NCBI GenBank assembly: GCA_038230495.1
Contig: JBBRNC010000008.1
Location: 30,378 to 94,377, forward strand
Origin: Verrucomicrobiales bacterium
Lineage (GTDB): Bacteria > Verrucomicrobiota > Verrucomicrobiia > Verrucomicrobiales > Verrucomicrobiaceae
DNA length: 64,000 nucleotides
Direction: 5' to 3'
Part shown: positions 10,722 through 61,457 of the stretch, one piece after another
Layout: each line of letters begins with the position of its first letter
How positions within the stretch are numbered: position 1 is the stretch's first letter
Translations under genes and position numbers: made by a program
The notes under the pieces: generated by a model
Told to the model about the DNA's origin: nothing
The model's database searches: none
What the model saw: the letters and a program-made list of their open reading frames with translations, nothing else

Positions 10722-10727
10722 GATGCA

Positions 10728-14010: not shown

Positions 14011-14041
14011 AAACGACGGTTTCATCACCGTCGTTTTTTTG
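14011..14041 (+). terminator. Rho-independent terminator after rplI
   Basis: ACGACGGT-TTCATC-ACCGTCGT stem-loop followed by TTTTTTTT. Confidence 0.7.
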
Positions 14042-14103
14042 TGCCTATATTCGAAGCGCCTAGCCGTATTGAGTTATTCACATCAATTCACATACGATGA
14101 TGG

Positions 14104-15624
14104 TTGCTTCATGCGCGACACGCGGCAAATTTTATTCCCTTTATTATGTCGGAACCTTCTAACATCGCCCCTTTCGACCCCAACGCAGTAGCCGCCCCCA
14201 GCGCCCCTGCTTTGCAAAAGGCCATCGCGCCCAGTCCGCGCGGAACAGAGTCCATGCGGGCCATGCCTTACAGCGATGACGCAGAGAAGGGCGTGCTCTC
14301 CTGCTTCCTGCAGAACCCCGTGGATGTGCTGGACGATGCACAGGTGAATCTTTCCGCAGAAGCTTTTTATCATCCGGGTAACCGCCTCATTTTCGAGGAG
14401 CTGATGGGCTTCAATAACCAACTAGGTAAGGCACTCGACCTCGTCACTTTCTCTCAGCATCTCATCGACAAAAATCTCATGGACAAGATCGGCGGGCCTT
14501 CCACGCTTGCCGAATTGCTGAACTTCGTCCCCACACCCGCGCACTATCCTTACTATCGCGGCATTCTACGGGACAAGCATCTCCTGCGTCGCGTCATCGG
14601 CGCCTGCACCGAGGGCATCCAGAGTGCCTACGAGTATCAAGAGGATGTGCCCGGTTTGCTCGACCGCGTAGAGCAACGCATCCTCGCCGTGCGCGAGGAA
14701 TCGCAGACGCGGGACAACATCAAGCCGCTCAAAGACCACGTCTCCGAGGCCATCGACGCCATGCAGGAGATGATCAAGAATCCCGGCATGTTGCGCGGGC
14801 TTTCCACCGGCTACGGCCTGCTCGACAAGCTGACCAACGGCCTGCAAAAAAGCGAAATGTTCGTCATTGCCGCAAGGCCTTCCATGGGCAAGACCTCGCT
14901 GGCCATGAACATGGTCGAGCACATCGCCCTTGTGCAGAAAAAGCCCGTCGCCGTTTTCAGCCTGGAAATGAGCGCTTCCATGCTCGTGCAGCGTCTCATT
15001 GTCGCCCGCGCAGGTGTCAATATGGGGAAAATCCACGGCGGCCTTCTCGCTCGCGAAGAAATGCGCGCCGTCATGAAAGCCTGCACCGAGCTTCAAGACG
15101 CGAACATTTTTATCGACGACACACCGGGTCTCGAAATCCTCGAACTACGGGCCAAGGCGCGACGATTGAAAAAGCAATACGGCATTGAACTCGTCGCCAT
15201 CGATTACCTCCAGCTCCTCACCTCCGGCAGCAAACGCGGCAAGGAAAACCGCCAAATCGAGATCGCAGAAATCTCCGCCGGCATCAAGGGTCTCGCCAAA
15301 GAACTGAACATCCCCGTGCTCGTGCTCGCCCAACTTAACCGTCAGGTGGAGCAGAATAAGAATCAAAAGCCCATGCTCAGTCACCTGCGTGAATCAGGTT
15401 CCATCGAGCAAGATGCTGACGTGGTCGGCCTGCTCACCCGTTCCGACTACGCGGGAGCCAAACAGGAAGACGCCGACGGCGCAGAAGATGAAAGCAAGAA
15501 AGGTGAGTCCGAACTCATCATCGCCAAGAATCGTAACGGCCCCACCGACAGCGTTCCACTCCGCTTCAAAGGCGAACTCATGCGCTTCACCGAGCGCGAG
15601 TTCGAGCGCGGATCAGATCATTGA
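14104..15624 (+). CDS. dnaB: Replicative DNA helicase DnaB
   Basis: Walker A ARPSMGKTS, LSTGYGLLD, DYLQLL, SGSIEQDADVV blocks; follows rplI as usual; exact start uncertain (possibly 14146). Confidence 0.9.
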   Translation: MLHARHAANFIPFIMSEPSNIAPFDPNAVAAPSAPALQKAIAPSPRGTESMRAMPYSDDAEKGVLSCFLQNPVDVLDDAQVNLSAEAFYHPGNRLIFEELMGFNNQLGKALDLVTFSQHLIDKNLMDKIGGPSTLAELLNFVPTPAHYPYYRGILRDKHLLRRVIGACTEGIQSAYEYQEDVPGLLDRVEQRILAVREESQTRDNIKPLKDHVSEAIDAMQEMIKNPGMLRGLSTGYGLLDKLTNGLQKSEMFVIAARPSMGKTSLAMNMVEHIALVQKKPVAVFSLEMSASMLVQRLIVARAGVNMGKIHGGLLAREEMRAVMKACTELQDANIFIDDTPGLEILELRAKARRLKKQYGIELVAIDYLQLLTSGSKRGKENRQIEIAEISAGIKGLAKELNIPVLVLAQLNRQVEQNKNQKPMLSHLRESGSIEQDADVVGLLTRSDYAGAKQEDADGAEDESKKGESELIIAKNRNGPTDSVPLRFKGELMRFTEREFERGSDH

Positions 15625-18556: not shown

Positions 18557-19263
18557 GCCTTCGTGTAGGCTTGTTTTTCGTGGTTGGGAGTGTCTGGGAA
18601 AGCCCTTCGGAGACGCTTGTCTTTACACAGCTTCGATAGAAAATCCTGCCGGAGTGTTCTCTCTCCTCGGTCCATGATTTTTGCCAGAGAGCTAATCGTC
18701 ACAAAATGTCCTTCACATACCTGAACAATCAGGTCCTCCAGTTCCTTCCGGTCGATTTTTCCTTTTGTTCTTGGGAGAGTCGCCATCGCCTCCAGTTTCT
18801 CGCGGAAATCTTGAGTCAGTTTATCCACGGAATCCACAAAAGGCAGTCGAAACTGTTCGGCGACCAGCCGCCCGACTTCATCGCGTTTGAGAACCTGTTT
18901 GCCCTCGATAATTGTGGAGCTAGGCCCGATAATTGTAGAGCTGCCCGTCAAAATTGTAGAGCTCGGATCGATAATGATAGTGCTGCCGGGACCAAAAATG
19001 TCATCAGGGTTGGCGGTATCGAAAAGCACTTTCAGAATCTTGTCCGGCTTTTCAATCGAGTTGAAGGCGAACTTCCCCTCCTTCTCCTTCACCCCCAGCA
19101 GCACGATCCCACCATGCATATTCGCCATGGCTGAATAGCTTCTCCAAAAGTCCTGAGGCAATTCTCCTTTTCCATCACGTCCAGCCGCCAACTTGCATTC
19201 GAGTTCATAGTACTCGCGCAGTTGCTCTAGGTCAGCCGTGTTTTGTAGTGGAAACGAGATCAT
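18553..19263 (-). CDS. AlbA_2-like (Schlafen-type) DNA-binding domain protein with C-terminal HTH; contains internal 7-aa tandem repeats
   Basis: N-terminal EQLREYYELECK...IVLLGVKEKEGKF resembles PF04326-type putative DNA-binding domain; PSSTII x3-4 repeats; sits between hsdS and hsdR. Confidence 0.5.
   Translation of the reverse strand: MISFPLQNTADLEQLREYYELECKLAAGRDGKGELPQDFWRSYSAMANMHGGIVLLGVKEKEGKFAFNSIEKPDKILKVLFDTANPDDIFGPGSTIIIDPSSTILTGSSTIIGPSSTIIEGKQVLKRDEVGRLVAEQFRLPFVDSVDKLTQDFREKLEAMATLPRTKGKIDRKELEDLIVQVCEGHFVTISSLAKIMDRGERTLRQDFLSKLCKDKRLRRAFPDTPNHEKQAYTKA
18906..18990. repeat. Four tandem imperfect ~21-bp repeats (CGATAATTGTAGAGCT-like) inside the AlbA_2-like gene
   Basis: cgataattgtggagctaggcc / cgataattgtagagctgcccgt / caaaattgtagagctcggat / cgataatgatagtgctgccggg; encode [GD]PSSTII repeats on the minus strand. 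Confidence 0.75.
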
Positions 19264-19284
19264 GGCGGTTGAACAGAGGCAAGG

Positions 19285-20460
19285 TTAAACAAACATTTGC
19301 TGAAGCAACCCGCGTTTGAAGGTTTGGGTGTGGGTGATCTGCGCGGCCACGGTTTCTATCTTGCGGTCGAGCGCTGTGAGGAAGTTGGCGATCTTGGTTT
19401 GTTCTGCTTGGCAAGGAAGCCCCATTTCCAAACCAGAGATGTCTTCTTTTGTGAATCCTTGAATCGACGTCCCTTGGTTGAAAGTTAGAAGTTTGTTCAG
19501 TGAAAACTTCAAGAAGTAAGCAACAAAGTATGGATTAGCATTCGAAGGAATCAGGCTGGTGAAATCCTGACTCGTGCAAAGGTCCGAAGGAGCGACGACT
19601 GCCTTTCCGACCCCGACCCTTGAAACAATCAGAACGCTGCCTTTCGGAACCAGTTTAGTGGCTGATTCTGCAATGGCCTCGCTGGTGATGAAGCGATTAA
19701 TTCTGATTTGTGTGATGCTCTCTTGCACAAGGTCGGAGCTGGAAACCCAAGGAATACTTCCGCTCCAATATTTTTTCTCGGATTTGCTGGGTGTTCCTCC
19801 GCCAATGAATTTGCCAAGCGTTCCGAAGGTAGTCTCCTCCCAATCGGGGAATTCATTGCCGTGGTCGTCTTGGAAGCGGAGGGCTTGGGTAAAGAGTTGT
19901 TGCATCACGCCTTTCTTGTAAGCCTCCAGCAGAGCTTTCTTTTGGCTCAGTTGCGCCAGCCGCCCATCCACCGCCGTCAAGAAATTCGCAATTTTCCGCT
20001 GCTCGGGTAGGAAGGGGGAACTAATGCTGTAACCTCCGATCTGTGGTCCAGTGAGTTGAGGAACGCCCGTTGATTCAATGAAAAATGGTATTCTGCTTAT
20101 CGCACTCTCGAAAAAGTTGACGTCACCAGCAGCCCGAGGCCGGAGCACGAGCAGCCTTACTATCGGAACGAATCGCTCGTGACGAGCGTGGGGCGTCCCA
20201 AGGTTTCCTCTTCCCGAAACCGTAACACAGCCTCCTTCCTCTTTGTAGTAACTCGCATAGCCGTAGAACCCCTTGTCAGTCTCCGCGTTTGCAAAGACTG
20301 GATATGGAAAATCGTCTGTCTTGGTTTTAGACAGCCTCTCTTTGTCGATGTCGCCTCCAGCTCCAATACGGAATACTTCACTGAGTTCATTAGTTTCCCA
20401 GCTCTCCGTAAATTCGGAAAACCTCAATTTGGGCACGCTCATGGTCTGCTCCATCTTCAT
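19285..20460 (-). CDS. hsdS: Type I restriction-modification specificity subunit (HsdS), two target-recognition domains
   Basis: Two TRD halves separated and followed by conserved coiled regions (LTALDRKIE..., FLTAVDGRLAQL); 391 aa; lower GC. Confidence 0.85.
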   Translation of the reverse strand: MKMEQTMSVPKLRFSEFTESWETNELSEVFRIGAGGDIDKERLSKTKTDDFPYPVFANAETDKGFYGYASYYKEEGGCVTVSGRGNLGTPHARHERFVPIVRLLVLRPRAAGDVNFFESAISRIPFFIESTGVPQLTGPQIGGYSISSPFLPEQRKIANFLTAVDGRLAQLSQKKALLEAYKKGVMQQLFTQALRFQDDHGNEFPDWEETTFGTLGKFIGGGTPSKSEKKYWSGSIPWVSSSDLVQESITQIRINRFITSEAIAESATKLVPKGSVLIVSRVGVGKAVVAPSDLCTSQDFTSLIPSNANPYFVAYFLKFSLNKLLTFNQGTSIQGFTKEDISGLEMGLPCQAEQTKIANFLTALDRKIETVAAQITHTQTFKRGLLQQMFV

Positions 20461-21515
20461 TCCGTGTCCTCCTCTTTGGCCTCAAATCTGGCCCTTGAAA
20501 GCTGGATGGCTTCGTGGAGTTTTTGTTGCAGGAGTTGACGGTCGGGCAGACCGGTGAGGTATTCGGCGACGTGGATGCCGGTGCCGCTGAGTTCCAGCAG
20601 CTCGATCTGCTCAGTCTTTTTTCCGGCGCAGAGGATGAGGCCGAGGGGCGGTTCCTCGCCGGGCTGTTGTTCATGCTTAGCCAGCCAGCGGAGGTAGAGT
20701 TCCATCTGGCCTTTATACTCGGCTTTGAAGTCGCCGAGCTTGAGGTCGATGGCGATGAGGCGCTTGAGCCGCCGGTGATAAAAAAGGAGGTCGATGTAGA
20801 AATCATCCGAGTCGATCTGGATGCGGAATTGTCGGGCCTGAAAGGTGAAGCCGTCTCCCATTTCGAGGAGGAAGTTTTCCAACTCACGCAGGATGGCGTC
20901 CTCCAAGTCCTTTTCCAGATAGCGGTCTTTCAGCCCCAGGAAATCGAGGATGTAGGGATCGCGGAAAACGAGTGAGGGGGTGAGTTTGTCCTCTTCTCTC
21001 AAGGCGGAGAGTTCGGCCTTGGCGACTTCCGCTGGCTGCTTGGAGATGGCGGTGCGCTCGAAAAGCATGGAGTCGATCTTCGAGCGCAAGGTGCGGACGC
21101 TCCAGCGCTCAATGCGGCACATCTCGGCGTAAAAGTCCCGCTGGAGGTCGTCTTTGAGGGGTATAATTTCTTTGAAATGGGACCATCCCAATTGTCGCGA
21201 CAGTGTAGCAACAATTTCACCCTCCGAGAACACTTGGTTAAACCTGACCATCCGGGTGAGGGCGGAGTAGTTGTAACCGCTCCCAAACTCTGCCGTCAAA
21301 GTTTGCGACAGTGTAGCAAGAATCTCCTTCCCATACCCAGCCCGCTTGTTTCCAAGGACTTCAGTCTGGATGCGCTTGCCGATGCGCCAGTAGAGAAGCG
21401 TCAACGCCGCGTTGGCAACTCCGGCCAGCGCGGTTCGAGTCTGCTGGATCATGCTCCGCACATCGGAGACGACACCGGCTGGGCTTTCGATGATGGTGAA
21501 GTCGGCGTCCTTCAT
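20457..21515 (-). CDS. DUF1016/YhcG-like PDDEXK nuclease-domain protein
   Basis: N-terminal LLYWRIGKRIQTEVL...GYGKEILATLSQTL signature of the YhcG family; 352 aa; inserted between hsdM and hsdS as is common for this family. Confidence 0.75.
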   Translation of the reverse strand: MKDADFTIIESPAGVVSDVRSMIQQTRTALAGVANAALTLLYWRIGKRIQTEVLGNKRAGYGKEILATLSQTLTAEFGSGYNYSALTRMVRFNQVFSEGEIVATLSRQLGWSHFKEIIPLKDDLQRDFYAEMCRIERWSVRTLRSKIDSMLFERTAISKQPAEVAKAELSALREEDKLTPSLVFRDPYILDFLGLKDRYLEKDLEDAILRELENFLLEMGDGFTFQARQFRIQIDSDDFYIDLLFYHRRLKRLIAIDLKLGDFKAEYKGQMELYLRWLAKHEQQPGEEPPLGLILCAGKKTEQIELLELSGTGIHVAEYLTGLPDRQLLQQKLHEAIQLSRARFEAKEEDTE

Positions 21516-21518
21516 GAC

Positions 21519-23087
21519 TCAAAAAGGTGGTTTGATTCCCAACTCTGCACAAAAGGCTGCGATGGTAGCATTCGTCCCGCTCATTTCCTGCTCCAGCGTG
21601 GCGAGTTGGGCGGAGACGGCGGCGAGGTCGATGGATTCCTCCGCGTCGAAGGTATCGACGTAGCGCGGGATGTTCAGGTTGTAGTCGTTGGCCTCGACCT
21701 CGCTGCGCTCGGCGACTTTGCTGAATTTCTCGATGCTCTCGCGCTTCCGGTAGGTGCTGACGATGCGCTCTATGTCCTCGGGGCGGAGTTGGTTTTGATT
21801 GCCGACTTTTTCAAAGTGCTGGCTGGCGTCGATGAAGAGGATGTCGTCGGGATGCTCGCGCTGCTTTTTCAGCACGAGGATGCAGGTGGGGATGCCGGTG
21901 CCGTAGAAGATGTTGGCCGGGAGGCCGATGACCGCGTCGAGGTAGTTGCAATCCTCGATGAGATACTTGCGGATGTGGCCTTCTGCCGCGCCGCGAAACA
22001 AGACGCCGTGCGGGAGGACGCAGGCCATGGTGGCACCGCTATCGAGGTGGTGGACCATGTGCTGGACGAAGGCGAAGTCGGCCTTGGTTTTAGGAGCCAG
22101 TTTGCCATAGGCGCTGAAGCGGTCGTCGCTCTCATGGATGGCGCTGGCGGACCAGTTGGCGGAGAAGGGCGGATTGGCGACGATGGCCTCGAAGCGCAAA
22201 TCGGCGTGCTCGGGCGCGGGATGCTCCAGGGTGTCCTCGTTCTTCAGGTCGAAGCGCTGGTAGTGGACACCGTGCAGAATCATGTTCATGCGGGCGAGGT
22301 TGTAGGTCGTGGGGTTCATCTCCTGCCCGTAGAAGTGGCCCACGTCCTCAACCTCCTTCGCCACGCGCAGCAGCAACGAGCCGGAGCCGCAGGTGGGATC
22401 ATAGACGCTTTTTAGCTTGGTCTTTCCGGTGGTGACGATCTTCGCTAAAATGGTGCTGACCTCCTGCGGCGTGTAGAACTCGCCGGCCTTCTTCCCCGCC
22501 CCGCTGGCGAACTGGCCGATGAGGTATTCGTAGGCATCGCCCAGCACGTCGGCCTCGGTATCGGCGAGGCGGAAGTCGATGCCATCGAGGTGGACGAGGA
22601 CTTTGGCGATGAGTTCGTTTTTCTGGTTCTCGGTCTTGCCGAGCTTCGACGAGCCGAGGTCGAGGTCCTCGAACAAGCCCTCGAAGTCGTCCTCACTGTC
22701 ATGGCCCATGGTGCTGGCCTCGATGTGCTTGAGGATGGCGGTGAGGTCTTCCAAGATGAAATTGTCCGTCTTCTGCGCACCCTTTTCGGCGACCTTGTGG
22801 AAGAGTTCGGACGGCTTCAGAAAATAGCCCAGCCGCCCGATGCATTCCTCCTGAATGGCTACGAGCATTTCCTTCCCCTTCTTGGTGGACTCGTCGATGT
22901 CGGCGAATTTGATCCCGTCATTCTTCAGGATGTCATCCGCGAAGAGGTGCATCCGCTCGGAGAGGTATTTGTAAAAGATGAAACCGAGGATGTAGTCGCG
23001 AAACTCATCAGCCCCCATCTTCCCGCGCAGGGTGTTGGCGATGTTCCAGAGCTGGGATTGGAGCGTCTTTTTGTGGTCGTCGGACAT
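21519..23087 (-). CDS. hsdM: Type I restriction-modification DNA methyltransferase subunit (HsdM), N6-adenine
   Basis: N-terminal HsdM_N helix (LWNIANTLRG), SAM motif DPTCGSGSLL, catalytic NPPF; 522 aa. Confidence 0.9.
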   Translation of the reverse strand: MSDDHKKTLQSQLWNIANTLRGKMGADEFRDYILGFIFYKYLSERMHLFADDILKNDGIKFADIDESTKKGKEMLVAIQEECIGRLGYFLKPSELFHKVAEKGAQKTDNFILEDLTAILKHIEASTMGHDSEDDFEGLFEDLDLGSSKLGKTENQKNELIAKVLVHLDGIDFRLADTEADVLGDAYEYLIGQFASGAGKKAGEFYTPQEVSTILAKIVTTGKTKLKSVYDPTCGSGSLLLRVAKEVEDVGHFYGQEMNPTTYNLARMNMILHGVHYQRFDLKNEDTLEHPAPEHADLRFEAIVANPPFSANWSASAIHESDDRFSAYGKLAPKTKADFAFVQHMVHHLDSGATMACVLPHGVLFRGAAEGHIRKYLIEDCNYLDAVIGLPANIFYGTGIPTCILVLKKQREHPDDILFIDASQHFEKVGNQNQLRPEDIERIVSTYRKRESIEKFSKVAERSEVEANDYNLNIPRYVDTFDAEESIDLAAVSAQLATLEQEMSGTNATIAAFCAELGIKPPF

Positions 23088-28743: not shown

Positions 28744-29523
28744 ATGCTTGCCAAGGCTCCAATCTCCACTCAAATCTCAATCCTTATGTTCGTTCGCACA
28801 TTGTTAGTCCTATCAGTCGCCGTTACCATGCCGTTCCAGTTGAATGCGCAGAACGCATCCGCAAAAAAAGGCTGGGGAGGTGATCCGGCCTCGGCCACCA
28901 AACTTAAGGCGCACTGGCATTACAATTGGTGGACAAACGGCAAATCAAGTCACGGCTTGGAATTTGTCCCGATGGTAAAAGGAAAAAAACAAGTGAACGA
29001 CACGGTGCTCAAAGCTATCAAGAGCAATGGCGCGAAAGTCATCCTCTGCTTGAACGAACCGGAACGCGCCTCGCAAGGCGACACCACTGTTGAAGAAGCC
29101 CTCAATCTCTGGCCAAAGCTTATGAAGACTGGCCTGCGCCTCGGAAGTCCCGCGCCCTCATCCGATGCTGCTGGTATGGCTTGGCTGGATACTTTTATGC
29201 AGGGTGTCGAGAAGAAGAAACTGCGAGTCGATTTCATCGCCCTACACTGGTATCGCAGTTCCGATCCCGACAAGTTTGAGGAATTTTTAAAAGAGATTCA
29301 CGACAAATATAAGCGCCCCATTTGGGTTACAGAGTTCAATTCCCAATACTCCAAAGGAGACCGTGACCAATTTGCCGCTCAGGCCTTCAAAATTTGTGAC
29401 CGCCTCGATTTCGTTGAACGCTACAGTTACTTCACCACCAAACCCGGCGAACCCGGCAGCTTGTGGAAAGATGGCGGACACAAGGAACTCACTCCGCTCG
29501 GTAAGGACTACACATCCCATTGA
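28744..29523 (+). CDS. Secreted glycoside hydrolase, GH128-like (Glyco_hydro_cc)
   Basis: Signal peptide; conserved LCLNEPE (catalytic Glu) and VTEFN (nucleophile Glu) blocks typical of the GH128/Glyco_hydro_cc fold. Confidence 0.65.
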   Translation: MLAKAPISTQISILMFVRTLLVLSVAVTMPFQLNAQNASAKKGWGGDPASATKLKAHWHYNWWTNGKSSHGLEFVPMVKGKKQVNDTVLKAIKSNGAKVILCLNEPERASQGDTTVEEALNLWPKLMKTGLRLGSPAPSSDAAGMAWLDTFMQGVEKKKLRVDFIALHWYRSSDPDKFEEFLKEIHDKYKRPIWVTEFNSQYSKGDRDQFAAQAFKICDRLDFVERYSYFTTKPGEPGSLWKDGGHKELTPLGKDYTSH

Positions 29524-29549
29524 GTGCTGGTTGTAACAGTGAAGATGAA

Positions 29550-30329
29550 ATGCTTGCCAATTCTCCAATTTCCACACAAATCCCGGCTCTTATGTTCCTT
29601 CGCCTATTCTTAGTTCTGACGATCGCTGTTATAACGCCATTTCAGTTGAATGCGGAAAACGCTTCTGCAAAAAAAGGCTGGGGAGGTGATCCTGCCACCG
29701 CCACCAAACTTAAGGCTCACTGGTATTACAACTGGTGGACAAACGGCAAATCAAGTCCTGATCTGGAATACGTTCCGATGGTAAAAGGGAAAAAACAAGT
29801 CAATGAGAAGACGCTCGATGCCATCAAGGCCAGCGGCGCAAAAGTTCTGCTCTGCTTGAACGAACCGGAACGTGACTCGCAAGGTGACACCACCGTTGAC
29901 GAAGCCCTCAATCTCTGGCCCAAGCTTATGAAGACCGGCCTGCGCCTCGGAAGTCCCGCGCCCTCTTCCGATCATGGCGGCATGGCATGGCTGGATCGCT
30001 TCATGCAGGGCGTTGCCAAAAGGAAGCTCCGGGTCGATTTCATCGCTTTGCACTGGTATCGCAGTTCCAACCCCAAGGAGTTTGAGGATTTTTTAAAAGA
30101 GATTCACCACAAGTATAAACGCCCCATCTGGGTTACTGAGTTCAATTCCCAATACTCCAAAGGGGACCGCGACCACTTTGCAGTGCAAGCCTTCAAAATC
30201 TGTGACCGCCTAGATTTCGTCGAGCGCTACAGTTACTTCAGCGCCAAACCCGGTCACCCCGGCAGCTTATTTAAAGAAGGCGGACACTCGGAATTGACGC
30301 ACCTCGGAGAAGACTACCTCCGGCATTAA
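29550..30329 (+). CDS. Secreted GH128-like glycoside hydrolase, tandem paralog of the preceding gene
   Basis: About 80% aa identity to 28744..29523 along the full length, same LCLNEPE/VTEFN motifs; ORF track start 29520 trimmed to the MLANSPIST Met. Confidence 0.65.
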   Translation: MLANSPISTQIPALMFLRLFLVLTIAVITPFQLNAENASAKKGWGGDPATATKLKAHWYYNWWTNGKSSPDLEYVPMVKGKKQVNEKTLDAIKASGAKVLLCLNEPERDSQGDTTVDEALNLWPKLMKTGLRLGSPAPSSDHGGMAWLDRFMQGVAKRKLRVDFIALHWYRSSNPKEFEDFLKEIHHKYKRPIWVTEFNSQYSKGDRDHFAVQAFKICDRLDFVERYSYFSAKPGHPGSLFKEGGHSELTHLGEDYLRH

Positions 30330-54506: not shown

Positions 54507-54575
54507 CCCGTGAATGAACAGCTTCCGGCTCATCCAAAAGTAACTCCATCTGGAGATCAGCGTCAGATAGTGTCT
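54507..54575. repeat. Degenerate ~66-bp copy of the pgsA 3' end (left boundary of the DUF433/DUF5615 cassette)
   Basis: ccgtgaatgaacagcttccggctcatccaaaagtaactccatctggagatcagcgtcagatagtg is about 75% identical to 55210..55275; minus-strand translation LTLISRWSYFWMSRKLFIHGDF versus the PgsA C-terminus LTLISGWSYFYKNRSLFLNGAG. Confidence 0.75.
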
Positions 54576-54642
54576 GTGCTGCTCCGCGACACGGTTCTGC
54601 GTGCGCCTTGACTCGTGATGCCAAAATAGCTAACTTCCCAAC

Positions 54643-54879
54643 ATGAATTACCGAGAGCGTATTATGATCGATCCACGCATTCGCAGCGGCAAGCCCTGCA
54701 TACGCGGCACACGGATCGCAGTGGCGGACGTTTTCGATTACCTCGGTGGCGGCATGACCATTGCCGAAGTGCTGGACGATTTTCCTGACCTGACCGCCGA
54801 CGACATTCAGGCGTGCTTTGCGTTTGCCGCTGACAGTGACCGCCGCCTAAACGTCGTTCCGCATGCAGTTGCTCTTTGA
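54643..54879 (+). CDS. DUF433-family putative antitoxin
   Basis: IDPRIRSGKPCIRGTRIAV...FPDLTADDIQACFAFAA is the DUF433 consensus; 78 aa. Confidence 0.7.
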   Translation: MNYRERIMIDPRIRSGKPCIRGTRIAVADVFDYLGGGMTIAEVLDDFPDLTADDIQACFAFAADSDRRLNVVPHAVAL

Positions 54880-55201
54880 TGAGAATCTTTCTCCCAAGCT
54901 GCCTCGCTTGGTGGAGATGCTTTTCCCCAACAGCACGCACGTCCGCGAGTGCGGGCTGCTTGGCCAACCCGACGAGGAAGTGTGGGAGTATGCGCGCACC
55001 CACGGCTTAGCCATCATCACGAAGGACTCCGACTTTCATCAGCGCAGTATGCTTTACGGCCATCCACCCAAAATCGTCTGGCTACGTATTGGCAACTGCA
55101 CCCGAGAGCAACTCGTCCAACTAATCACGGCACACGAACTGGTTATACACGCGCTCGACACAGACCCCTTCGAAGCTGTGCTCATCCTCTCCTCACCCTA
55201 A
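54863..55201 (+). CDS. DUF5615-family (PIN-like) putative toxin
   Basis: MQLLFDENLSPKL...GLLGQPDEEVWEYARTHGLAIITKDSDF matches the DUF5615 consensus; overlaps DUF433 by 17 nt. Confidence 0.7.
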   Translation: MQLLFDENLSPKLPRLVEMLFPNSTHVRECGLLGQPDEEVWEYARTHGLAIITKDSDFHQRSMLYGHPPKIVWLRIGNCTREQLVQLITAHELVIHALDTDPFEAVLILSSP

Positions 55202-55824
55202 CTCCCCGCTCCGTTGAGAAACAGTGAGCGGTTTTTATAAAAGTAACTCCAGCCGGAGATCAGTGTCAGTGAAACCATGATGGCGAGACAGGAGAAGCCG
55301 AACACGTGGGGCGAGAACCATTTCCACTCGAACGCATGGGCGGCCCATTGCATCATCGGTTCGCCACCGCCAGGGCCGGGTGGCTCTGCGCTGGCGCGCG
55401 CGGCCATGAAATAGACGACGGTGATCATCTGCCAGAGGGTTTTGTGCTTGCCGAGTTTCTCTGCGGCCAGCACCGCGCCCTTGTTCATCGCGAGCAGGCG
55501 AATGCCAGTCACGAAGAACTCGCGAGCTAACACCACGATCACCGTCCATGCGGGTAGTCGCAATGGCTCGCGCGGCTCAGCCGCCAGCATCACTAGGGCC
55601 GCAGCCATGAGAATCTTGTCTGCCAGTGGATCCATCAGCTTGCCGAAATCCGTGACGAGATTCTGCCGACGAGCGATCTCGCCATCGAGGTAATCCGTGA
55701 ATGATGCGACGAGGAATATGATCAACGCCCACGACACTCGGTTTTCTAGCGGGACATAAAACAACACGACGAACACCACCGTCAGCAGAAGACGGGCAAT
55801 GGTGAGTTTGTTAGGAAGATTCAT
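55198..55824 (-). CDS. pgsA: CDP-diacylglycerol--glycerol-3-phosphate 3-phosphatidyltransferase
   Basis: CDP-alcohol phosphatidyltransferase motif DYLDGEIARRQNLVTDFGKLMDPLADK; 208 aa. Confidence 0.85.
   Translation of the reverse strand: MNLPNKLTIARLLLTVVFVVLFYVPLENRVSWALIIFLVASFTDYLDGEIARRQNLVTDFGKLMDPLADKILMAAALVMLAAEPREPLRLPAWTVIVVLAREFFVTGIRLLAMNKGAVLAAEKLGKHKTLWQMITVVYFMAARASAEPPGPGGGEPMMQWAAHAFEWKWFSPHVFGFSCLAIMVSLTLISGWSYFYKNRSLFLNGAGS
55210..55278. repeat. Intact pgsA 3'-terminal segment, right copy of the direct repeat flanking the TA cassette
   Basis: See 54507..54575; this copy encodes the actual PgsA C-terminus. Confidence 0.75.
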
Positions 55825-55871
55825 GCGCGTTGCGTCGAACCGTTGTTAGAAGCAGACGATGCAAAGTCAAT

Positions 55872-56315
55872 TCACCTTTCGGAAAACACCGGCTTTTTCC
55901 AAATAGGCACGCTGGTCTTGATCTCTTTTAGATACCACCGGCACAGATCAAATGAGAGCGCACTGTGCTTTGTCCGCACGCGAATGATGATGCTCGGTTC
56001 TTTCGCGGGAACAAAGCCAAGCCGATGCCTGATCTCGACATGATGCGCCCCATGCTCGACTTGGGCGCGTTCGCAGAGGGCCGCGAGTTCGTTGTCGGCC
56101 ATCGGGCGATAAGCGCTGTATTCGATCCCGCTGATCGGCTGGCCATCTTCCTCGCCGCGCACCACCCCGAGAAATTGCGTCTCCGCGCCCTCGCCATCGG
56201 CAAATACCGTAGGCCCGGCGATGATCGGGCTTTCTGAAAGATGGATGGTGAACGCGGGCATGAACACACGATCCATCGCGATTTCTGCCGCAACATCAAG
56301 CTTGCCGTTTGCCAT
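55872..56315 (-). CDS. moaE: Molybdopterin synthase catalytic subunit
   Basis: MoaE fold blocks (HRLGFVPAKEPSIIIRV); 147 aa; moaD lies 19 kb away. Confidence 0.75.
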   Translation of the reverse strand: MANGKLDVAAEIAMDRVFMPAFTIHLSESPIIAGPTVFADGEGAETQFLGVVRGEEDGQPISGIEYSAYRPMADNELAALCERAQVEHGAHHVEIRHRLGFVPAKEPSIIIRVRTKHSALSFDLCRWYLKEIKTSVPIWKKPVFSER

Positions 56316-56338
56316 CGGAGTCTGTTAATCTTAGCCTC

Positions 56339-56836
56339 ATGAACTCGCACAGACTTTGTTTCAAGCCGTTAGTTATCGCGATCTTGCTGGCCGCATGGGC
56401 TGATTTGGCCAGCGCTCAAGTCGTGCCCGCGTCGCCGAAAGGATTCACCACCCGCACCACTGGCGGCGGCAGTTCGAGCAATATCGGTGTGACCAGCCAG
56501 CCCAAGCCACAGGAAAAAACTGTTCGCACCATCTCCTACATTTCGCTGAGCGAACCCCGTCAGTGGAAAAGCGCCGATGGGAAATCGCTACTTGGAAAGC
56601 TCATCGCCTTCGAGGATTTGATAGTGGAAACAAAAATCGCAGCGGACGCCAAACCATCTCCCTCTGCGCCACCGCTGATGCCAGATCATCCGACCGTGGT
56701 GCGCGATGCCAAAGCGCGGCTCTTCATTGACAGCAAACCCGTCGAGGTGGCGCTAGCTAGGCTCAGTGAGGACGACCAGAAATTCATTGAAAACATCCGC
56801 GCCAGCATCACGGCATCGGCCACTAAGAAGAACTGA
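56339..56836 (+). CDS. Secreted hypothetical protein with SHD1-like module
   Basis: Signal peptide; RQWKSADGKSLLGKLIAFED... and ...VEVALARLSEDDQKFIENI; ORF track start 56309 trimmed. Confidence 0.45.
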   Translation: MNSHRLCFKPLVIAILLAAWADLASAQVVPASPKGFTTRTTGGGSSSNIGVTSQPKPQEKTVRTISYISLSEPRQWKSADGKSLLGKLIAFEDLIVETKIAADAKPSPSAPPLMPDHPTVVRDAKARLFIDSKPVEVALARLSEDDQKFIENIRASITASATKKN

Positions 56837-56951
56837 GCTGAAGATTCATGCGATGCATGAAGAATTTCCCAGTTGCCAAGCGGCTGGTTGAGGCTAGTTG
56901 AATCCCCGCTTTGTCAGAACGACTGCGGATAACTCGACACTAAAAAAGAAC

Positions 56952-58394
56952 ATGAGCAACAAAAGTGATTTCGGATTGATCGGCCTCGCCGTGATGGGAC
57001 AGAACCTAGTCTTGAACGTGGAAAGCCGCGGCTTCCAAGTCAGCGTCTTCAACCGCACCACCGCCACCACGGACGAGTTCATCGCCAAGCATCCCGGCAA
57101 GAAACTCGTCGGCTGCCACACGCTCGAAGAATTCGTTCAAAGCCTCGCCACGCCGCGCAAAATTCACATCATGGTCAAATCCACCGCCACGGCCGACAGT
57201 GATCGCGATGCCGTGGACGCAGTGATTGAACAGCTCATTCCGCTTCTCTCGAAAGACGACATCATCATTGACGGCGGTAACTCCTTCTACAAAACCACCG
57301 AACGTCGCGATGCCTATCTCACCGGCAAAGGACTGCGCTTCATCGGCGCAGGCGTGAGCGGTGGAGAAGAAGGCGCGCGCAAAGGCCCGAGCATCATGCC
57401 CGGCGGCCCTGCGAGCACTTGGGAAGTAATGAAGCCCATCTTTGAGAGCATCGCCGCGAAAGTGGACGGCGAGCCTTGCGTCATTCACATCGGCCCCGGC
57501 GGCGCTGGCCATTACGTGAAGATGATCCACAACGGCATTGAGTATGGCGACATGCAGCTCATCTGCGAGGCCTACAACATTTTCAAACACGCTGGCTTCA
57601 CCACCGACGAAATGGCCGCGATCTTCAACGAATGGAACGATGGCGACCTGCAAAGCTATCTGATCCAGATCACCGGAAAAGCGCTTGAACAAAAAGACCC
57701 TGAGACCGGCAAGCCCATCGTTGAACTCATCCAGGACAAGGCCGGACAAAAAGGCACAGGCCAATGGACACTGATCAATGCTGCGGAAAACGCCGTCGTC
57801 ATCAGCACCATCAACGCCGCCGTGGAAGCCCGCATTCTGTCGAGCCAGAAGAAACAACGCGTCGCCGCCAGCACTCAGCTCGCTGGCCCTGACGGCACCA
57901 TCAAGACCGATAAGGCTGCCCTTGTGAAAAAAGTCCACGACGCTCTCTACGCCTCGAAGATCATCAGCTACGCCCAAGGTCTCGACCTCATCAAAACGAT
58001 GGGGGAGAAAAAGAACTGGGGTCTCGACCTCGGACGCATCGCCGCCATCTGGCGCGGCGGCTGCATCATCCGCGCGAAATTCCTCAATCGCATCACCGAC
58101 GCCTATCGCAGCAATCCCGCGCTAGTGAACCTCATGCTCGATCCCTTCTTCAAAGACCTAATCAGCAAGACCCAGCAAAACTGGCGCGAGGTCGTCGCCC
58201 TCACCACTCTCAACGGCATCCCCGTCCCCGCATTCTCCGCGAGCCTCGGTTACTACGACAGCTACCGCGCCGAACGCCTCCCCGCGAATCTCCTCCAAGC
58301 CCAAAGAGATTTCTTCGGCGCTCATACCTACGAGCGCACCGACAAACCCGAAGGCCAGTTCTTCCATACGGAATGGCCGGAGGTGATTGGGTAG
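56952..58394 (+). CDS. gnd: 6-phosphogluconate dehydrogenase (decarboxylating)
   Basis: GLIGLAVMGQNLVLN Rossmann N-terminus, IIDGGNS, full-length about 480 aa; ORF track start 56898 trimmed. Confidence 0.9.
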   Translation: MSNKSDFGLIGLAVMGQNLVLNVESRGFQVSVFNRTTATTDEFIAKHPGKKLVGCHTLEEFVQSLATPRKIHIMVKSTATADSDRDAVDAVIEQLIPLLSKDDIIIDGGNSFYKTTERRDAYLTGKGLRFIGAGVSGGEEGARKGPSIMPGGPASTWEVMKPIFESIAAKVDGEPCVIHIGPGGAGHYVKMIHNGIEYGDMQLICEAYNIFKHAGFTTDEMAAIFNEWNDGDLQSYLIQITGKALEQKDPETGKPIVELIQDKAGQKGTGQWTLINAAENAVVISTINAAVEARILSSQKKQRVAASTQLAGPDGTIKTDKAALVKKVHDALYASKIISYAQGLDLIKTMGEKKNWGLDLGRIAAIWRGGCIIRAKFLNRITDAYRSNPALVNLMLDPFFKDLISKTQQNWREVVALTTLNGIPVPAFSASLGYYDSYRAERLPANLLQAQRDFFGAHTYERTDKPEGQFFHTEWPEVIG

Positions 58395-58397
58395 GCA
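58330..58397. repeat. gnd 3'-terminal segment, left copy of a ~66-bp direct repeat flanking the hicAB cassette
   Basis: cgagcgcaccgacaaacccgaaggccagttcttccatacggaatggccggaggtgattgggtaggc is about 90% identical to 58876..58942. Confidence 0.8.
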
Positions 58398-58416
58398 ACC
58401 ACAAAACGATCTTTTC

Positions 58417-58617
58417 ATGCCGCGAAAAATCCGCCAGCTTGCCCAAGACCTGATGGGTGCCGGTTTCGCTTTGCGATCTGGCGGCAAGGGATCCCACCGT
58501 AAATTCACACATCCCAATTTGGACGGATTTGCTTTGTTATCGGGAAAAGATGGCGAGGATGCAAAACACTATCAGGAAAAGCATGTTCGTGATAAGATAC
58601 GGGAGTCAAAATCATGA
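58417..58617 (+). CDS. hicA: HicA/YcfA-family type II toxin (mRNA interferase)
   Basis: MPRKIRQLAQDLMGAGF...GGKGSHRKFTHP...HYQEKHVRDKI fits the HicA family; about 66 aa; starts just after the gnd stop. Confidence 0.7.
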   Translation: MPRKIRQLAQDLMGAGFALRSGGKGSHRKFTHPNLDGFALLSGKDGEDAKHYQEKHVRDKIRESKS

Positions 58618-58856
58618 GAACAACCATTCAACAGCTCGCCGACAACTACGTGAAACTCGTGCGATGGAGTGACGAGGACAGTTGCTTTGTGGGCAGCATC
58701 CCGGACTTGTGTGGCGACTGCTGCCACGGTGATACACCTGGCGAGGTTTACGATCAGCTGGTGGAAATCGCCGAAGATTTGGTTGCCACAGCTCAGCGCG
58801 ATGGCCTTACTCTACCCATAGTCCGCACAAAAGTTATGATGGAAATGGCGTCTTGA
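58614..58856 (+). CDS. hicB: HicB-family (UPF0150) antitoxin
   Basis: YVKLVRWSDEDSCFVGSIPDLCGDCCHGDTPGEVYDQLVEIAEDLV fits HicB; ATGA 4-nt overlap with hicA. Confidence 0.7.
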   Translation: MRTTIQQLADNYVKLVRWSDEDSCFVGSIPDLCGDCCHGDTPGEVYDQLVEIAEDLVATAQRDGLTLPIVRTKVMMEMAS

Positions 58857-58867
58857 ATCTTTTAGCG

Positions 58868-58942
58868 CCTACACCACGAACGCACCGACAAACCCGAAGG
58901 CCAGATGTTCCACACGGAATGGCCAGAGGTGATTGGGTAGGC
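58868..58942. repeat. Degenerate copy of the gnd 3' end (right boundary of the hicAB cassette)
   Basis: cgaacgcaccgacaaacccgaaggccagatgttccacacggaatggccagaggtgattgggtaggc; would encode ERTDKPEGQMFHTEWPEVIG-stop versus the genuine ...GQFFHTEWPEVIG-stop. Confidence 0.8.
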
Positions 58943-58982
58943 CGCCGCTCAAGAGACGGACAGGAGCATCCGACTTGTCAGT

Positions 58983-59366
58983 TCACGTCTGAGGAAATAT
59001 TAAATCCTCGGCGTGATCCCCTACCTGATTCCTGAGTTCGTGAATGTAGGGAAAGCCCATGGCCATCCAGGTTTCATCCTGATCCAACGGCGATACAAAC
59101 TCATCAAGTCGATCCTCTTGTTCCGCGATTACGAGACGCGTCAGATGCTCGGATACCGCCGGAACAAGCCTTTCAAGAAATCGACCGAAAGCCGGTTGAT
59201 CTAAAAATTCAAATGCAGCCGTCGTCATCCGAAGCATTTTTTCAGAATCCGCGACAATGTCAGGTCCGTCCAGCAGCACGGCAGCTTGAAGACCTTGGGA
59301 TTGCTGAAGAATCTCGAATCTCGTGACCAACATCATGACCCGCAGGCGCTCTGGAAGAAGTTCCAA
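58983..59366 (-). CDS. HEPN-domain protein (Rx4-6H motif)
   Basis: ELRNQVGDH matches the HEPN R-x4-6-H motif; all-helical 127-aa protein. Confidence 0.45.
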   Translation of the reverse strand: MELLPERLRVMMLVTRFEILQQSQGLQAAVLLDGPDIVADSEKMLRMTTAAFEFLDQPAFGRFLERLVPAVSEHLTRLVIAEQEDRLDEFVSPLDQDETWMAMGFPYIHELRNQVGDHAEDLIFPQT

Positions 59367-59434
59367 CGCCTTGAACTCCTTTTGATGCGACTAAAGAAAC
59401 TCAGCGGCCTTTTTCGTGGAAACCACCCATCACC

Positions 59435-59650
59435 TTGGTTATCCTCTTGCCAATGGCTTCCGACCTCACTCCTGAATATATCGCCACGCTGCGTCGCATG
59501 ACGGGTGCACAAAAGCTGCGCACAGCTTTCGGACTCTACTGGTCCGCGCGGAAGCTGAAAGCGGCTCGCTTGCGGGAGCAGCACCCCGAATGGAGCGAGG
59601 ACAGGGTGCAGCAGCGCGTGAAGGAAATTTTCAAACATGCCGTTACCTGA
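59435..59650 (+). CDS. Small hypothetical protein, upstream partner of the nucleotidyltransferase
   Basis: 71-aa ORF (possibly starting at MASDLTPEY) overlapping the next gene by 14 nt. Confidence 0.3.
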   Translation: MVILLPMASDLTPEYIATLRRMTGAQKLRTAFGLYWSARKLKAARLREQHPEWSEDRVQQRVKEIFKHAVT

Positions 59651-60203
59651 GCCATTTCTCATATTCACCCGGAAGCTCAATGAACTGGGCCTTCGCTACA
59701 TGGTGAGCGGCAGCGTCGCAGCGATCTACTACGGCGAGCCCCGCATGACCAATGACGTGGATATCATCGTCTTTCTCAAGCGCGAAGATGCAGTCCGCAT
59801 TGAACAAGCATTCCCTGCTGACGAGTTCTATTGCCCACCACAAGAAGTCATACAGATCGAACTGTCACGCCCGCAACGCGGTCATTTCAACCTGATCCAT
59901 CACGATACCGGATTCAAGGCCGACATCTACCTCACAGGTCACGACAAACTGCATGAATGGGGTCTCGCCCATGCCCGCACCGCAGACCTTGAAGGCGACT
60001 ACGTAATCTTCGCCCCACCGGAATATGTTATCATCAGGAAGCTCCAGTTTTACCGCGAAGGAGACGCAGCGAAACATCTGCGTGACATCAGCCGGATGTT
60101 GTCGAGCCTGGGTGATGAATGGGATCACCAGCCATTGATCGAACTCATTCAGCAGCATGGTCTGGAACATGAGTGGCAGAGCGCACTGAAGTTCAGTGAT
60201 TAA
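59637..60203 (+). CDS. Minimal nucleotidyltransferase (MNT)-fold protein
   Basis: GSVAAIYYGEPRMTNDVDIIV carries the GS...DxD signature of the pol-beta-type nucleotidyltransferase fold; 188 aa. Confidence 0.55.
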   Translation: MPLPEPFLIFTRKLNELGLRYMVSGSVAAIYYGEPRMTNDVDIIVFLKREDAVRIEQAFPADEFYCPPQEVIQIELSRPQRGHFNLIHHDTGFKADIYLTGHDKLHEWGLAHARTADLEGDYVIFAPPEYVIIRKLQFYREGDAAKHLRDISRMLSSLGDEWDHQPLIELIQQHGLEHEWQSALKFSD

Positions 60204-60350
60204 AGCAGTGCATTGTCTGGCCTATGAATCTGGCAGCGCCTTCTCAGCGATGACCATGTGGAGGCGGTGCAGAAAAGCTTGAGAGGCGTGGCGCCACGCG
60301 TAACACAACTCGTCCCGACTGTGTTACTCCACTCGACGCGATAATGAATC

Positions 60351-61457
60351 TCACGCCTTCACCGCCCAGCGCAGTTTCGCGGGCGCGGCTCTGGAGTTGA
60401 GACGGATTTCTTCTGCTGTGGGACGCTGCACTTCATCGCTGATGGCTGAGAAAATGCCGCTGCGCTCGGCGGTTTGGAAGCATTTTTTTACACGACGATC
60501 CTCGCCGGAGTGGAACGTGAGAATTGCAACCCGTCCACCAGAACGGAGACAGTCTGGCAGTTCACGCAGGAAGGAATCGAGCGCGCTGAATTCCTCATTT
60601 ACAGCGATTCGCAAGGCTTGAAACACGCGGCGCGTGGTGGTCGCTACAGCATCTTCACTCATATGACGCGGCAGGTTCTTTTTCACTGCCGACGCGAGAA
60701 CTTGAGTGCCAGCATAATTCTGGCCAGCTAGCACTTCAGCGAGGGCTGAGGCATGGGGTTCGTCAGCGTTTTCTTTGAGCAAGGCTGCTAATTTTTCGGC
60801 ACTGATTATTCGCAAGAGATCACGCGCGGAGACTCCGCGCTGTGGGTTCATGCGCATGTCGAGCGGGCCGTCGTTTTTGAAACTGAAGCCGCGTGCGGGG
60901 TTATCCAGTTGCATGGAGGACACGCCGAGATCGGCGAGGATCACGTCTGCTCCGACGCTCCATCCTATTTCATCAAGAGCACGGCGAACTCCGGCAAAGT
61001 TCGTGCGCTGCACGGTCAGGCATTTGTCAGGAAACCCGAGCGTGCGCAGTCGCGTCTCCGTCTTCACTATCTCAATGGGATCCTGATCCAGTCCGAGCAG
61101 ACAACCCTTGGGCTGCAGCGCGCGGAGCAGCGCCTCGGCGTGACCGCCATAGCCGAGTGTGGCATCCACCACTCGTTCACCCGGCTGCGGTGCAAGCACT
61201 TCCATAATTTCCGCGAGCATGATCGGCACATGTTGCCCAGCGGGTGTCTTGCCGGATGCGCGCACTTTGGCAACGGTATCCGCGTATCGCTCCGGCTGAT
61301 GTTCTTTGTATTTGTCCTCGAAACGGCGCGGATTTTTTCCGCCATATCGCTTTCTACGCTGATGCTTCGGCGCAGGCACATCGGCATTAGATTGGTCGGA
61401 AGGATCTATCATCTGGATGACGAGACGCCGGATGATCTCCGAGGTCAAGTTTTCCAA
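60351..61457 (-). CDS. rsmH: 16S rRNA (cytosine1402-N4)-methyltransferase RsmH/MraW with ~70-aa basic N-terminal extension
   Basis: HVPIMLAEIMEVL, VDATLGYGGHA, LGLDQDP blocks; not followed by ftsL/ftsI on this strand. Confidence 0.85.
   Translation of the reverse strand: MENLTSEIIRRLVIQMIDPSDQSNADVPAPKHQRRKRYGGKNPRRFEDKYKEHQPERYADTVAKVRASGKTPAGQHVPIMLAEIMEVLAPQPGERVVDATLGYGGHAEALLRALQPKGCLLGLDQDPIEIVKTETRLRTLGFPDKCLTVQRTNFAGVRRALDEIGWSVGADVILADLGVSSMQLDNPARGFSFKNDGPLDMRMNPQRGVSARDLLRIISAEKLAALLKENADEPHASALAEVLAGQNYAGTQVLASAVKKNLPRHMSEDAVATTTRRVFQALRIAVNEEFSALDSFLRELPDCLRSGGRVAILTFHSGEDRRVKKCFQTAERSGIFSAISDEVQRPTAEEIRLNSRAAPAKLRWAVKA

Follow-up and report, generated by a model that had tools for sequence, protein, structure and literature searches.

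Introduction

In "insertion with long target duplication", restriction-modification (R-M) genes lie between direct repeats of 30 to >400 bp without mobility genes; the term is credited to Nobusato et al. 2000, as cited by Furuta, Abe and Kobayashi 2010 (PMC2853133). According to the passages of the latter paper on these inserts, the two repeats correspond in alignments to one single-copy target of genomes with an empty site, some repeats overlap a gene 3' end, and the mechanism is unestablished. In this study, we analyzed two small toxin-antitoxin pairs, DUF433/DUF5615 and hicAB, in a 64-kb stretch of DNA from a Verrucomicrobiales bacterium (the window). They are located beside pgsA and gnd, respectively, and each pair lies between two copies of the 3' end of that gene. 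The likeness to the R-M inserts, as described in the same passages, was close: an addictive selfish gene pair, no mobility gene, and long direct repeats of variable length, here longer than 30 bp and bounding inserts of less than 20 kb with no transposase or integrase in or beside them. The window inserts are a recurrent insertion scar of a described kind, not a new class of element. An earlier, sequence-only reading of this DNA was not aware of any description of capture for such small units, but integrase-less repeat-bounded inserts are known (PMC2853133, PMC7563491, PMC7935541). In contrast to the R-M inserts, the cargo here was type II toxin-antitoxin, SLATT, nucleotidyltransferase or other small genes of 0.55-2 kb, and the housekeeping reading frame was rebuilt in two cases.

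Several other systems are related. Cis-mobilizable elements (CIMEs; 1.2-13 kb) and microCIMEs (130-220 bp) occupy conserved gene 3' ends (PMC7563491), the targets in Firmicutes being rpmG, rpsI, fda, rplL, and tRNA-Lys (PMC5704250, PMC7563491). They are defined as deletion derivatives of integrative and conjugative (or mobilizable) elements (ICEs/IMEs), and were surveyed only in tandem with such elements (PMC7563491). The window inserts shared with them the direct repeats at the target gene 3' end and the lack of integrase, relaxase, and coupling protein; on the other hand, no parental element, tandem partner, or relic of one was found, and the host belongs to Verrucomicrobiota, not Firmicutes. 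Integrase-bearing islands also supply a replacement 3' end, leaving a displaced and slightly different copy at the far side, but carry their own tyrosine integrase beside the att site, whereas the window inserts comprised a few hundred bases with toxin-antitoxin genes only. Integron cassettes are likewise sub-kilobase units, often toxin-antitoxin pairs, moved by a recombinase encoded elsewhere, but are bounded by dedicated attC sites; the window inserts were bounded by copies of the neighboring gene, with no attC-like site. The pdif modules of Acinetobacter plasmids, again sub-kilobase, often toxin-antitoxin, and dependent on a recombinase from elsewhere, are bounded by XerC/D sites. In Microcystis aeruginosa, a ParDE-like pair lies between two 152-bp direct repeats downstream of an orthocaspase gene, starting 14 bp past the stop of the upstream gene (PMC7935541). 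This resembles the window in that long repeats bound a toxin-antitoxin pair, but the Microcystis repeats differ in being identical to each other and non-coding, with inverted repeats inside them, and no gene end is duplicated (PMC7935541). A 2020 review called the movement of stand-alone toxin-antitoxin modules unelucidated (PMC7167474), and the present loci bear on this question.

Results and Discussion

Two toxin-antitoxin pairs between copies of gene 3' ends

The gnd gene occupied 56952-58394 on the plus strand, with a TAG stop at 58392-58394. Its live 3' end (58318-58396, plus strand) recurred, with a TAG stop of its own, as a displaced copy at 58864-58942 on the same strand. The strong part of this repeat (58330-58396 versus 58876-58942) was 67 nt long and 93% identical (62/67), the copies being 546 nt apart, and in the near copy it covered the 21 terminal codons and the TAG stop. 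The similarity, now weaker and interrupted by a 1-nt indel, extended back to about -77 from the stop (58318 in the live copy); in the displaced copy, this weaker part began right behind the hicB stop. Two plus-strand genes, hicA (58408-58617) and hicB (58614-58856), filled the space between the copies: they overlapped by 4 nt and were co-directional with gnd, the hicA ATG following the gnd stop after 11 nt. This gap contained no promoter-like site, and hicAB is probably read through from gnd. Both family scores were just below the Pfam cut-offs (HicA_toxin, 26.7 bits versus 27; UPF0150 [HicB-like], 21.6 versus 27.3), while HicB relatives at 60-63% identity were paired with Pfam-positive HicA, one source annotating them as "HicB family nuclease". 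The pair is referred to here as a predicted HicAB toxin-antitoxin. The 60-63% HicB relatives directly follow glpK in Prosthecobacter-like contigs; similarity to these glpK-linked relatives was confined to the segment from the hicA ATG through the hicB stop, and in this alignment hicAB behaves as an ORF (open reading frame)-only unit, from ATG to stop. No near-identical copy of the window HicB was found outside its own genome, and a relative with 79% identity was on a 617-nt contig in another context.

The second insert adjoined pgsA (55198-55824, minus strand; CDP-OH_P_transf, 1.5e-43). The live pgsA 3' end (55211-55269, minus strand, within pgsA) matched a displaced remnant, the far copy (54508-54566, minus strand), at 43/59 positions (73%) over a distance of 703 nt, with a longest perfect block of 13 nt. 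The live repeat copy encodes LTLISGWSYFYKNRSLFLN; the remnant, which has lost its stop and is decaying, gives LTLISRWSYFWMSRKLFIHG in in-frame translation. The live end of pgsA reads LTLISGWSYFYKNRSLFLNGAGS before the stop, and its relatives terminate with LTLISGFSYFWKNRRLFSDA and the stop: after the repeat, four new codons (GAGS) are followed by a stop that overlaps the DUF5615 stop. The cassette between the copies (54592-55201, plus strand; a unit of approximately 600 nt) is opened by a promoter-like TTGACT at 54608-54613 and closed by the toxin stop. It contains overlapping genes for a DUF433 antitoxin-like protein (54643-54879, plus strand; Pfam 7e-25) and a DUF5615/PIN_10-like toxin (54863-55201, plus strand; 1e-33), with scores of 87 and 116 bits, respectively, well over the Pfam cut-offs. 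DUF433 followed by DUF5615 was also found in L174-L193 (comparison loci are given as L numbers), and the DUF5615 family gave >1200 matches, with 70-80% identity across phyla. The 600-nt unit was 79-85% identical at the nucleotide level in three unrelated contexts (the window, L174, and L184), and in the comparison with L174/L184 the similarity broke off sharply at both ends. Because the similarity of DUF433/DUF5615 and of hicAB each ended at sharp unit boundaries across contexts, both are, as judged by sequence comparison, discrete, minimal, and mobile units. No flanking repeats were present around DUF433/DUF5615 in L174 and L184, or around the glpK-linked hicAB relatives: such repeats either disappear as the inserts age or are not formed in every case. 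In four of the glpK-linked loci (L083, L085, L089, and L091), hicA before hicB was disrupted, with only a 35-aa ORF left (approximately 4800-4910 in L083), and hicB was intact.

Random 59-mers taken outside the listed repeat regions found their best match within 1.5 kb at 28.4 +/- 2.2 positions (99th percentile, 33), so that the 43/59 of the pgsA pair was 6.7 standard deviations above random expectation. Only four families of direct repeats of at least 35 nt within 8 kb were detected in the whole window: besides the gnd and pgsA repeats, one was a tandem paralogue pair and the other an apparent conserved motif in two neighboring genes. The sequence-only reading had claimed one insertion signature for both toxin-antitoxin pairs, and this was confirmed, neither repeat being due to chance. 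It had also stated that the inserts lack an integrase: none was visible among the window ORFs, and a tblastn search of the window for the tyrosine integrase and resolvase of an island in the same family (L039, see below) gave no match, its sensitivity being limited. For the genome of the window, the absence of recombinase genes was checked over the 64 kb. An independent Logan assembly of SRR19962015 (the same sample) had identical junctions at both inserts, and exact-protein look-ups (HicB, DUF5615, pgsA, and gnd) returned the source sample alone or no match.

Allelic repeat copies and a reciprocal crossover at gnd

For comparison, 80 loci were fetched by gnd protein similarity; the comparison sequences are mostly metagenome assemblies, as is the window itself. 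The nearest genomes were Prosthecobacter-like Verrucomicrobiaceae, many of which had a gnd protein 91-93% identical to that of the window. The closest gnd body among the fetched loci showed 85% nucleotide identity, and no close relative of the window's own genome was found at the DNA level among the collections examined. As a separate observation, the window gnd protein was 82-86% identical to those of the Betaproteobacteria Variovorax, Rhodoferax, and Xenophilus (L054-L065), nearly as high as to some Verrucomicrobia, which suggests a possible transfer of gnd between phyla.

The two gnd copies of the window differed at five positions. Three differences were synonymous at the third position (GAG/GAA, CAT/CAC, and CCG/CCA), and the other two swapped the codon TTC for ATG (first and third base). 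In 52 related gnd genes, both states were common at each of these two bases (first, 29/23; third, 26/23). Because the differences were synonymous or common alleles, unlike the random decay expected of a copy made in place, the two copies are two natural alleles of gnd.

Three other Verrucomicrobial genomes (L002, L027, and L052) carried other small cargo between direct repeats at or just past the gnd end. In L002, the repeat was 164 nt long and 87% identical, spanning -77 to +86 from the gnd stop, and the 1.84-kb cargo consisted of a SLATT_5 gene, which matched the PADLOC RTasSLATT models listed under DRT, and a 166-aa ORF. This insert could be compared with sister, empty-site, and donor-like loci. 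Its sisters L003 and L001 had gnd bodies 97.9 and 97.5% identical, respectively; in L021 and L022 the site was empty, and the same TPR-ATPase gene immediately followed gnd; and in L049 the L002-type cargo was directly behind gnd, a donor-like arrangement. The live copy of L002 was L003-like at -63..-51 (5/5 sites) and L049-like at +58..+86. The displaced copy showed the opposite pattern: its left part resembled the consensus, and its right part L001/L003/L021/L022. Each repeat copy of L002 is thus a chimera of the native and the foreign allele, and the two chimeras are reciprocal. This pattern of single-nucleotide polymorphisms (SNPs) points to one reciprocal crossover between -51 and +58; the crossover would therefore lie inside the repeat, and the incoming DNA would be homologous on both sides, including the non-coding terminator. 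That the "duplication" of L002 represents two alleles brought together by a reciprocal crossover is not stated for the R-M inserts in the passages of PMC2853133 on target duplication.

Other routes were considered for L002. Staggered-cut duplication, template switching, and homology-facilitated illegitimate recombination all predict, as we reason, a wholly native remnant, and were rejected since the SNPs contradict this. Shared ancestry of the element-borne gnd arms of the window and L002 was rejected as well: the two remnants matched at 58/66 positions, no closer than to ordinary gnd ends. One rare base, at -16, was common to both remnants, which is weak evidence of shared ancestry. DNA folding gave z-scores of +1.1 to -2.3 for the repeats (-2.2, -1.4, -2.3, and +0.4 for the four window copies); these were modest and inconsistent, and an attC-like or other structured site in the repeats was discarded.

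Recurrence in related loci and around HicB relatives

Further repeat-bounded inserts were found by self-comparison of all fetched loci. In L027, a repeat of at least 41 nt (85%) bounded a DUF2204 nucleotidyltransferase gene. The 46-nt repeat of L052 (98%) began 6 nt past the gnd stop, and its cargo was an unrelated hicA with the partner on the opposite strand. In L005, a 51-nt repeat (94%), corresponding to the last 16 codons and stop of a SASA esterase gene, bounded 1.6 kb of cargo, and the empty site was seen in L010. Both repeats aligned to a single-copy target in an insert-free relative for L002 (versus L021/L022) and L005 (versus L010). The comparison of occupied and empty sites proposed by the sequence-only reading was thus possible for these two inserts and not for the window, to which the nearest gnd was only 85% identical. 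Donor/recipient similarity ended at the outer end of the repeat: at the stop codon (window and L005), past the terminator (L002), or approximately 30 nt past the stop (L109, see below). Seven inserts of this kind, examined in detail, were 0.55-2.0 kb in length and all lacked a recombinase. A perfect block of 22-35 nt was kept in every repeat pair except the old pgsA pair.

No integrase-bearing element, of which the inserts might be remnants, was found at gnd in the 80 loci (tblastn with one integrase and one resolvase from L039 as queries), and a scan of viral contigs for a conserved gnd 3' motif yielded 0 matches. L039 itself carries a classical 7.3-kb island (8238-15598) at the 3' half of tRNA-Arg, with a 79-nt repeat (87% identical), a tyrosine integrase, primase/helicase-like genes, and a resolvase. 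At the same hotspot in L048 (10459-11304), an IS200/RAYT-like gene 22 nt past the gnd stop lay between 65-nt REP (repetitive extragenic palindromic)-like hairpin repeats; this insert represents a different mechanism.

A profile of the window HicB family retrieved 80 metagenomic loci, 66 of which were testable. Significant direct repeats flanked hicAB in 14/66 loci versus 4/231 arbitrary sites in gnd loci, an approximately tenfold enrichment. In L109 and L159, a duplication of 60-68 nt, comprising the 19 terminal codons and stop of a murA-like gene, surrounded a co-directional hicAB, and the remnant began 3 nt past the hicB stop. In these two loci, the murA-like gene, hicAB, and the remnant were common, and the sequence beyond the remnant (L109, 1519-1580; L159, 866-920) was completely different; the repeat-bounded unit therefore has different downstream neighbors. 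In L139, 123 nt of a fabI-like gene end were duplicated around a methyltransferase gene and hicAB, and in L133 (3-2097) an insert of approximately 1 kb with hicAB lay between 27-nt repeats of the tRNA-Ser 3' end, with a Phage_integrase ORF on the 5' side of tRNA-Ser, outside the repeat-bounded segment. In L107 and L113, approximately 30 nt containing TTGACA were duplicated, in L107 directly upstream of a pyrG-like gene. Repeat lengths in the whole set varied from 27 to 164 nt, and the targets were gene ends, intergenic DNA, and a promoter region. The proposal that gene 3' ends are targeted holds for gnd, pgsA, and others, but is too narrow, since the repeats of L052, L107, and L113 were wholly intergenic or in a promoter.

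Several of the 14 repeat-flanked loci looked like integron attC sites when judged by eye (L102, L119/L120, L131, and L148). HicB relatives of L102, L119/L120, L131, L142, and L148 were located between 40-100-nt imperfect palindromes bounded by ...TAAC / GTTA..., with three attC-like copies in an array in L148. The HicB family thus also has a separate route as integron cassettes, which is not the one seen in the window.

Possible mechanism of insertion

Host recombination was favored as the mechanism because no recombinase was found in or beside the examined inserts, extended and partly diverged homology lay on both sides of the crossover, repeat lengths and targets were variable, L049 was donor-like, and perfect blocks were kept. 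Each module may have entered by homologous recombination of the host with incoming DNA bearing a gene end, through a single reciprocal crossover, an account to which we give slightly less than an even chance. A small foreign DNA would carry the cassette linked to a homologous copy of the 3' end of a conserved gene, and one reciprocal crossover would join the resident 3' end and the incoming copy, either by Campbell-type insertion or with a repeat-flanked cassette using its two repeats as homology arms. The product would be the gene body, a hybrid live end, the cassette, a hybrid displaced end, and the native downstream DNA, in this order; the housekeeping gene would be left intact, and the apparent target duplication would be two alleles side by side. 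The crossover would most likely be made by the homologous recombination machinery of the host, with 25-160 nt of homology serving RecA or a single-strand annealing protein, and the addictive toxin-antitoxin pair would then retain the insert. We infer that the two window inserts arose in the same way as that of L002, and that the incoming DNA was circular or repeat-flanked and was handled by such an enzyme.

Several points weigh against this account. Three events that differed in cargo (the window, L002, and L027) had the left edge of the gnd repeat between -65 and -77; a shared edge is unexpected for independent random events, and a fixed recombination site or common ancestry would explain it. 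Among the target gene ends, 3/5 folded with z < -2 versus 4% of 116 control gene ends, in a post hoc comparison of five targets. The murA-like and SASA targets had 7-10 bp inverted repeats around a 7-nt spacer, similar to a tyrosine-recombinase core, and the mini-insert of L133 at the 27-nt tRNA-Ser 3' end had an integrase gene beside that tRNA. For the window itself, neither chimerism nor an empty site was seen, with no close relative among the collections. Furthermore, the model leaves unexplained the origin of the first circular or repeat-flanked donor molecule.

Some of these points would follow if the inserts were CIME-like, namely, if the repeats were attL and attR of a site-specific tyrosine integrase at the gnd or pgsA 3' end, acting in trans or since lost by deletion, with the addictive toxin-antitoxin pair and the two att sites retained. 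We regard this as a possible but not a probable origin. The architecture is that of 3'-end-targeting islands supplying a replacement gene end (PMC5704250), and integrase-less CIMEs and microCIMEs are common at streptococcal gene 3' ends (PMC7563491). In three genomes, the left edges of the gnd repeats coincide, some targets have hairpin-like inverted repeats with 7-nt spacers, a classical integrase island exists in the same family (L039), an integrase stands beside the tRNA-bounded hicAB insert of L133, and the relic at 58992-59387 (see below) indicates that deletion occurs at the locus. Nevertheless, integrase-bearing elements were found neither at gnd in the 80 loci nor in the window, and the viral contigs contained no gnd-end site. 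The cassettes lay tight against both repeats without debris of deleted modules, and the seven inserts examined were all at most 2 kb; the extreme decay of larger islands, which the sequence-only reading had also thought less likely, does not fit inserts too compact for random deletion remnants. Moreover, the homology of the element-borne site of L002 to gnd DNA extended to either side of the crossover and reached into non-coding DNA, whereas a core-type att site needs no such homology, and the cargo ends beside the repeats had no conserved arm sequences in common.

A true long target duplication made in place, arising at a long staggered break or when a stalled fork switches template, with copies initially identical, is the literal meaning of the "insertion with long target duplication" in the relevant passages of PMC2853133. 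Both window gnd copies ended with the TAG stop, which is rare (3/52 relatives), and with the same last 15 nt, as expected of such copies, and the 98% identical 46-nt repeat of L052 is compatible with this origin. However, the window gnd differences were synonymous or allelic, including a two-base swap to another common allele, and in L002 the foreign alleles in the right half of the live copy and the left half of the remnant contradict it. We consider it improbable overall.

Capture of integron-type cassettes at secondary sites by an integron integrase, close to the integron-like capture that the sequence-only reading had suggested beside mobilization in trans, is very improbable, although HicB-family relatives do occur between attC-like repeats in metagenomic arrays (L102, L119/L120, L131, and L148, by eye). 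The window repeats were alleles of coding sequence without the symmetry of attC-type imperfect palindromes, and there was no intI, attI, or cassette array in the 64 kb. To our knowledge, integron recombination does not duplicate 60-160 nt of its target. Chance similarity or an assembly artefact, for which the metagenomic origin of the window and most comparison loci might speak, is hardly credible: 43/59 and 62/67 were both far outside the random distribution, the repeats were in frame with gene ends, two assemblies agreed, the copies differed in sequence and hence were not a collapsed repeat, and the same architecture recurred in independent samples.

An extension of the host-recombination account is that minimal toxin-antitoxin or defence cassettes bring along a portable homology arm, namely, the terminal 30-160 nt of a highly conserved gene; they would insert by host recombination, without a dedicated recombinase, into any genome possessing that gene, and rebuild the gene in the process. 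We offer this as a tentative and rather doubtful generalization; if true, stand-alone toxin-antitoxin modules would have a general means of spreading that needs no integrase. The loci in any case give a countable signature: sub-kilobase, sharp-ended units between two alleles of a target sequence. If host recombination is sufficient, the ends of highly conserved genes (gnd, for instance) would be cross-species landing pads for selfish and defence modules, and many published "target duplications" would need re-reading as donor and recipient alleles side by side. If instead a recombinase acts in trans, the inserts would belong to a family of very small satellite elements, so far undescribed, in Verrucomicrobiota.

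Older layers downstream of gnd

Beyond the displaced gnd end, and outside the repeat-bounded hicAB unit, a 127-aa ORF (58983-59366, minus strand) was detected, which the sequence-only reading had called a HEPN gene. No match was obtained for it in Pfam, NCBIfam, or PADLOC, and no relative in a word-indexed protein search. Exhaustive phmmer aligned it with residues 324-447 of the 449-residue protein P0143 (2.5e-42, 60% identity), and in tblastn with P0143 only residues 316-447 were present in the window, at 59387-58992. The ORF is accordingly a gene relic (homology span, 58992-59387, minus strand) encoding the C-terminal 132 residues of a protein of approximately 450 aa. These ~450-aa relatives have an HExxH motif near residue 131 and no Pfam domain. 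The RNQVGDH motif of the relic was not conserved in the second-closest homologue, P0144, and a single-sequence structure model was too poor for use (pLDDT 49). The HEPN identity was rejected: there was no family match, the ORF is a 3' fragment of a longer gene, and the R...H motif is absent in P0144. Judging from the alignment with P0143, only the 3' third of the gene is left, the 5' two thirds having been lost; deletion has therefore acted at this locus.

In relatives, gnd is followed by a terminator hairpin within about 25-105 nt past the stop. In the window, a decayed copy (59384-59416, plus strand; aligned with L007, L008, L010, L011, and L040) was located approximately 1 kb past the live stop. 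The next two genes had been described as a small-protein/nucleotidyltransferase pair. The first part stood, since the small protein (59435-59650, plus strand) passed the Pfam cut-off for the Rv0078B antitoxin; the nucleotidyltransferase (59637-60203, plus strand) was weaker, with DUF2204, AbiEii, and NTP_transf_5 matches below their cut-offs. In L007, L008, and L011, gnd and the terminator hairpin (AAGGCGGCTGAGGAAACTCAGCCGCTTTTTT) were directly followed by the Rv0078B-like gene; in L009, L010, L012, and L040, this gene was 0.4-1.7 kb further downstream of gnd. A nucleotidyltransferase came after it in L007 (partial) and L011, and was also present in L009. The Rv0078B-like/nucleotidyltransferase pair is, by gene order, seen as an older resident of the gnd-downstream hotspot. 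The window order (gnd, hicAB, gnd remnant, gene relic, decayed terminator, and Rv0078B-like/nucleotidyltransferase pair) implies that at least three events are layered downstream of gnd, of which hicAB is apparently the most recent. In L007 (10736-11448), the nucleotidyltransferase was cut after 58 residues, and the next ORF was transposase-like by eye.

Other features of the window

All ORFs of the 54.5-60.3-kb region were assigned by Pfam or proved to be relics. In the map of 52-63 kb, the remaining genes were an mpl-like Mur ligase gene (minus strand), a 439-aa secreted-type ORF ending at 54472, moaE (55872-56315, minus strand), a 175-aa ORF between moaE and gnd, and rsmH (60351-61457, minus strand). 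Elsewhere in the window, a Type I R-M-like operon was located at 15680-23087 (minus strand), with hsdR-, hsdS-, and hsdM-like ORFs identified by eye and two extra ORFs interleaved (18553-19263 and 20457-21515); no long flanking direct repeats were found around this operon (15.7-23.1 kb). Tandem paralogous genes for signal-peptide proteins were present at 28744-29523 and 29520-30329, sharing a 300-nt stretch with 80% identity.

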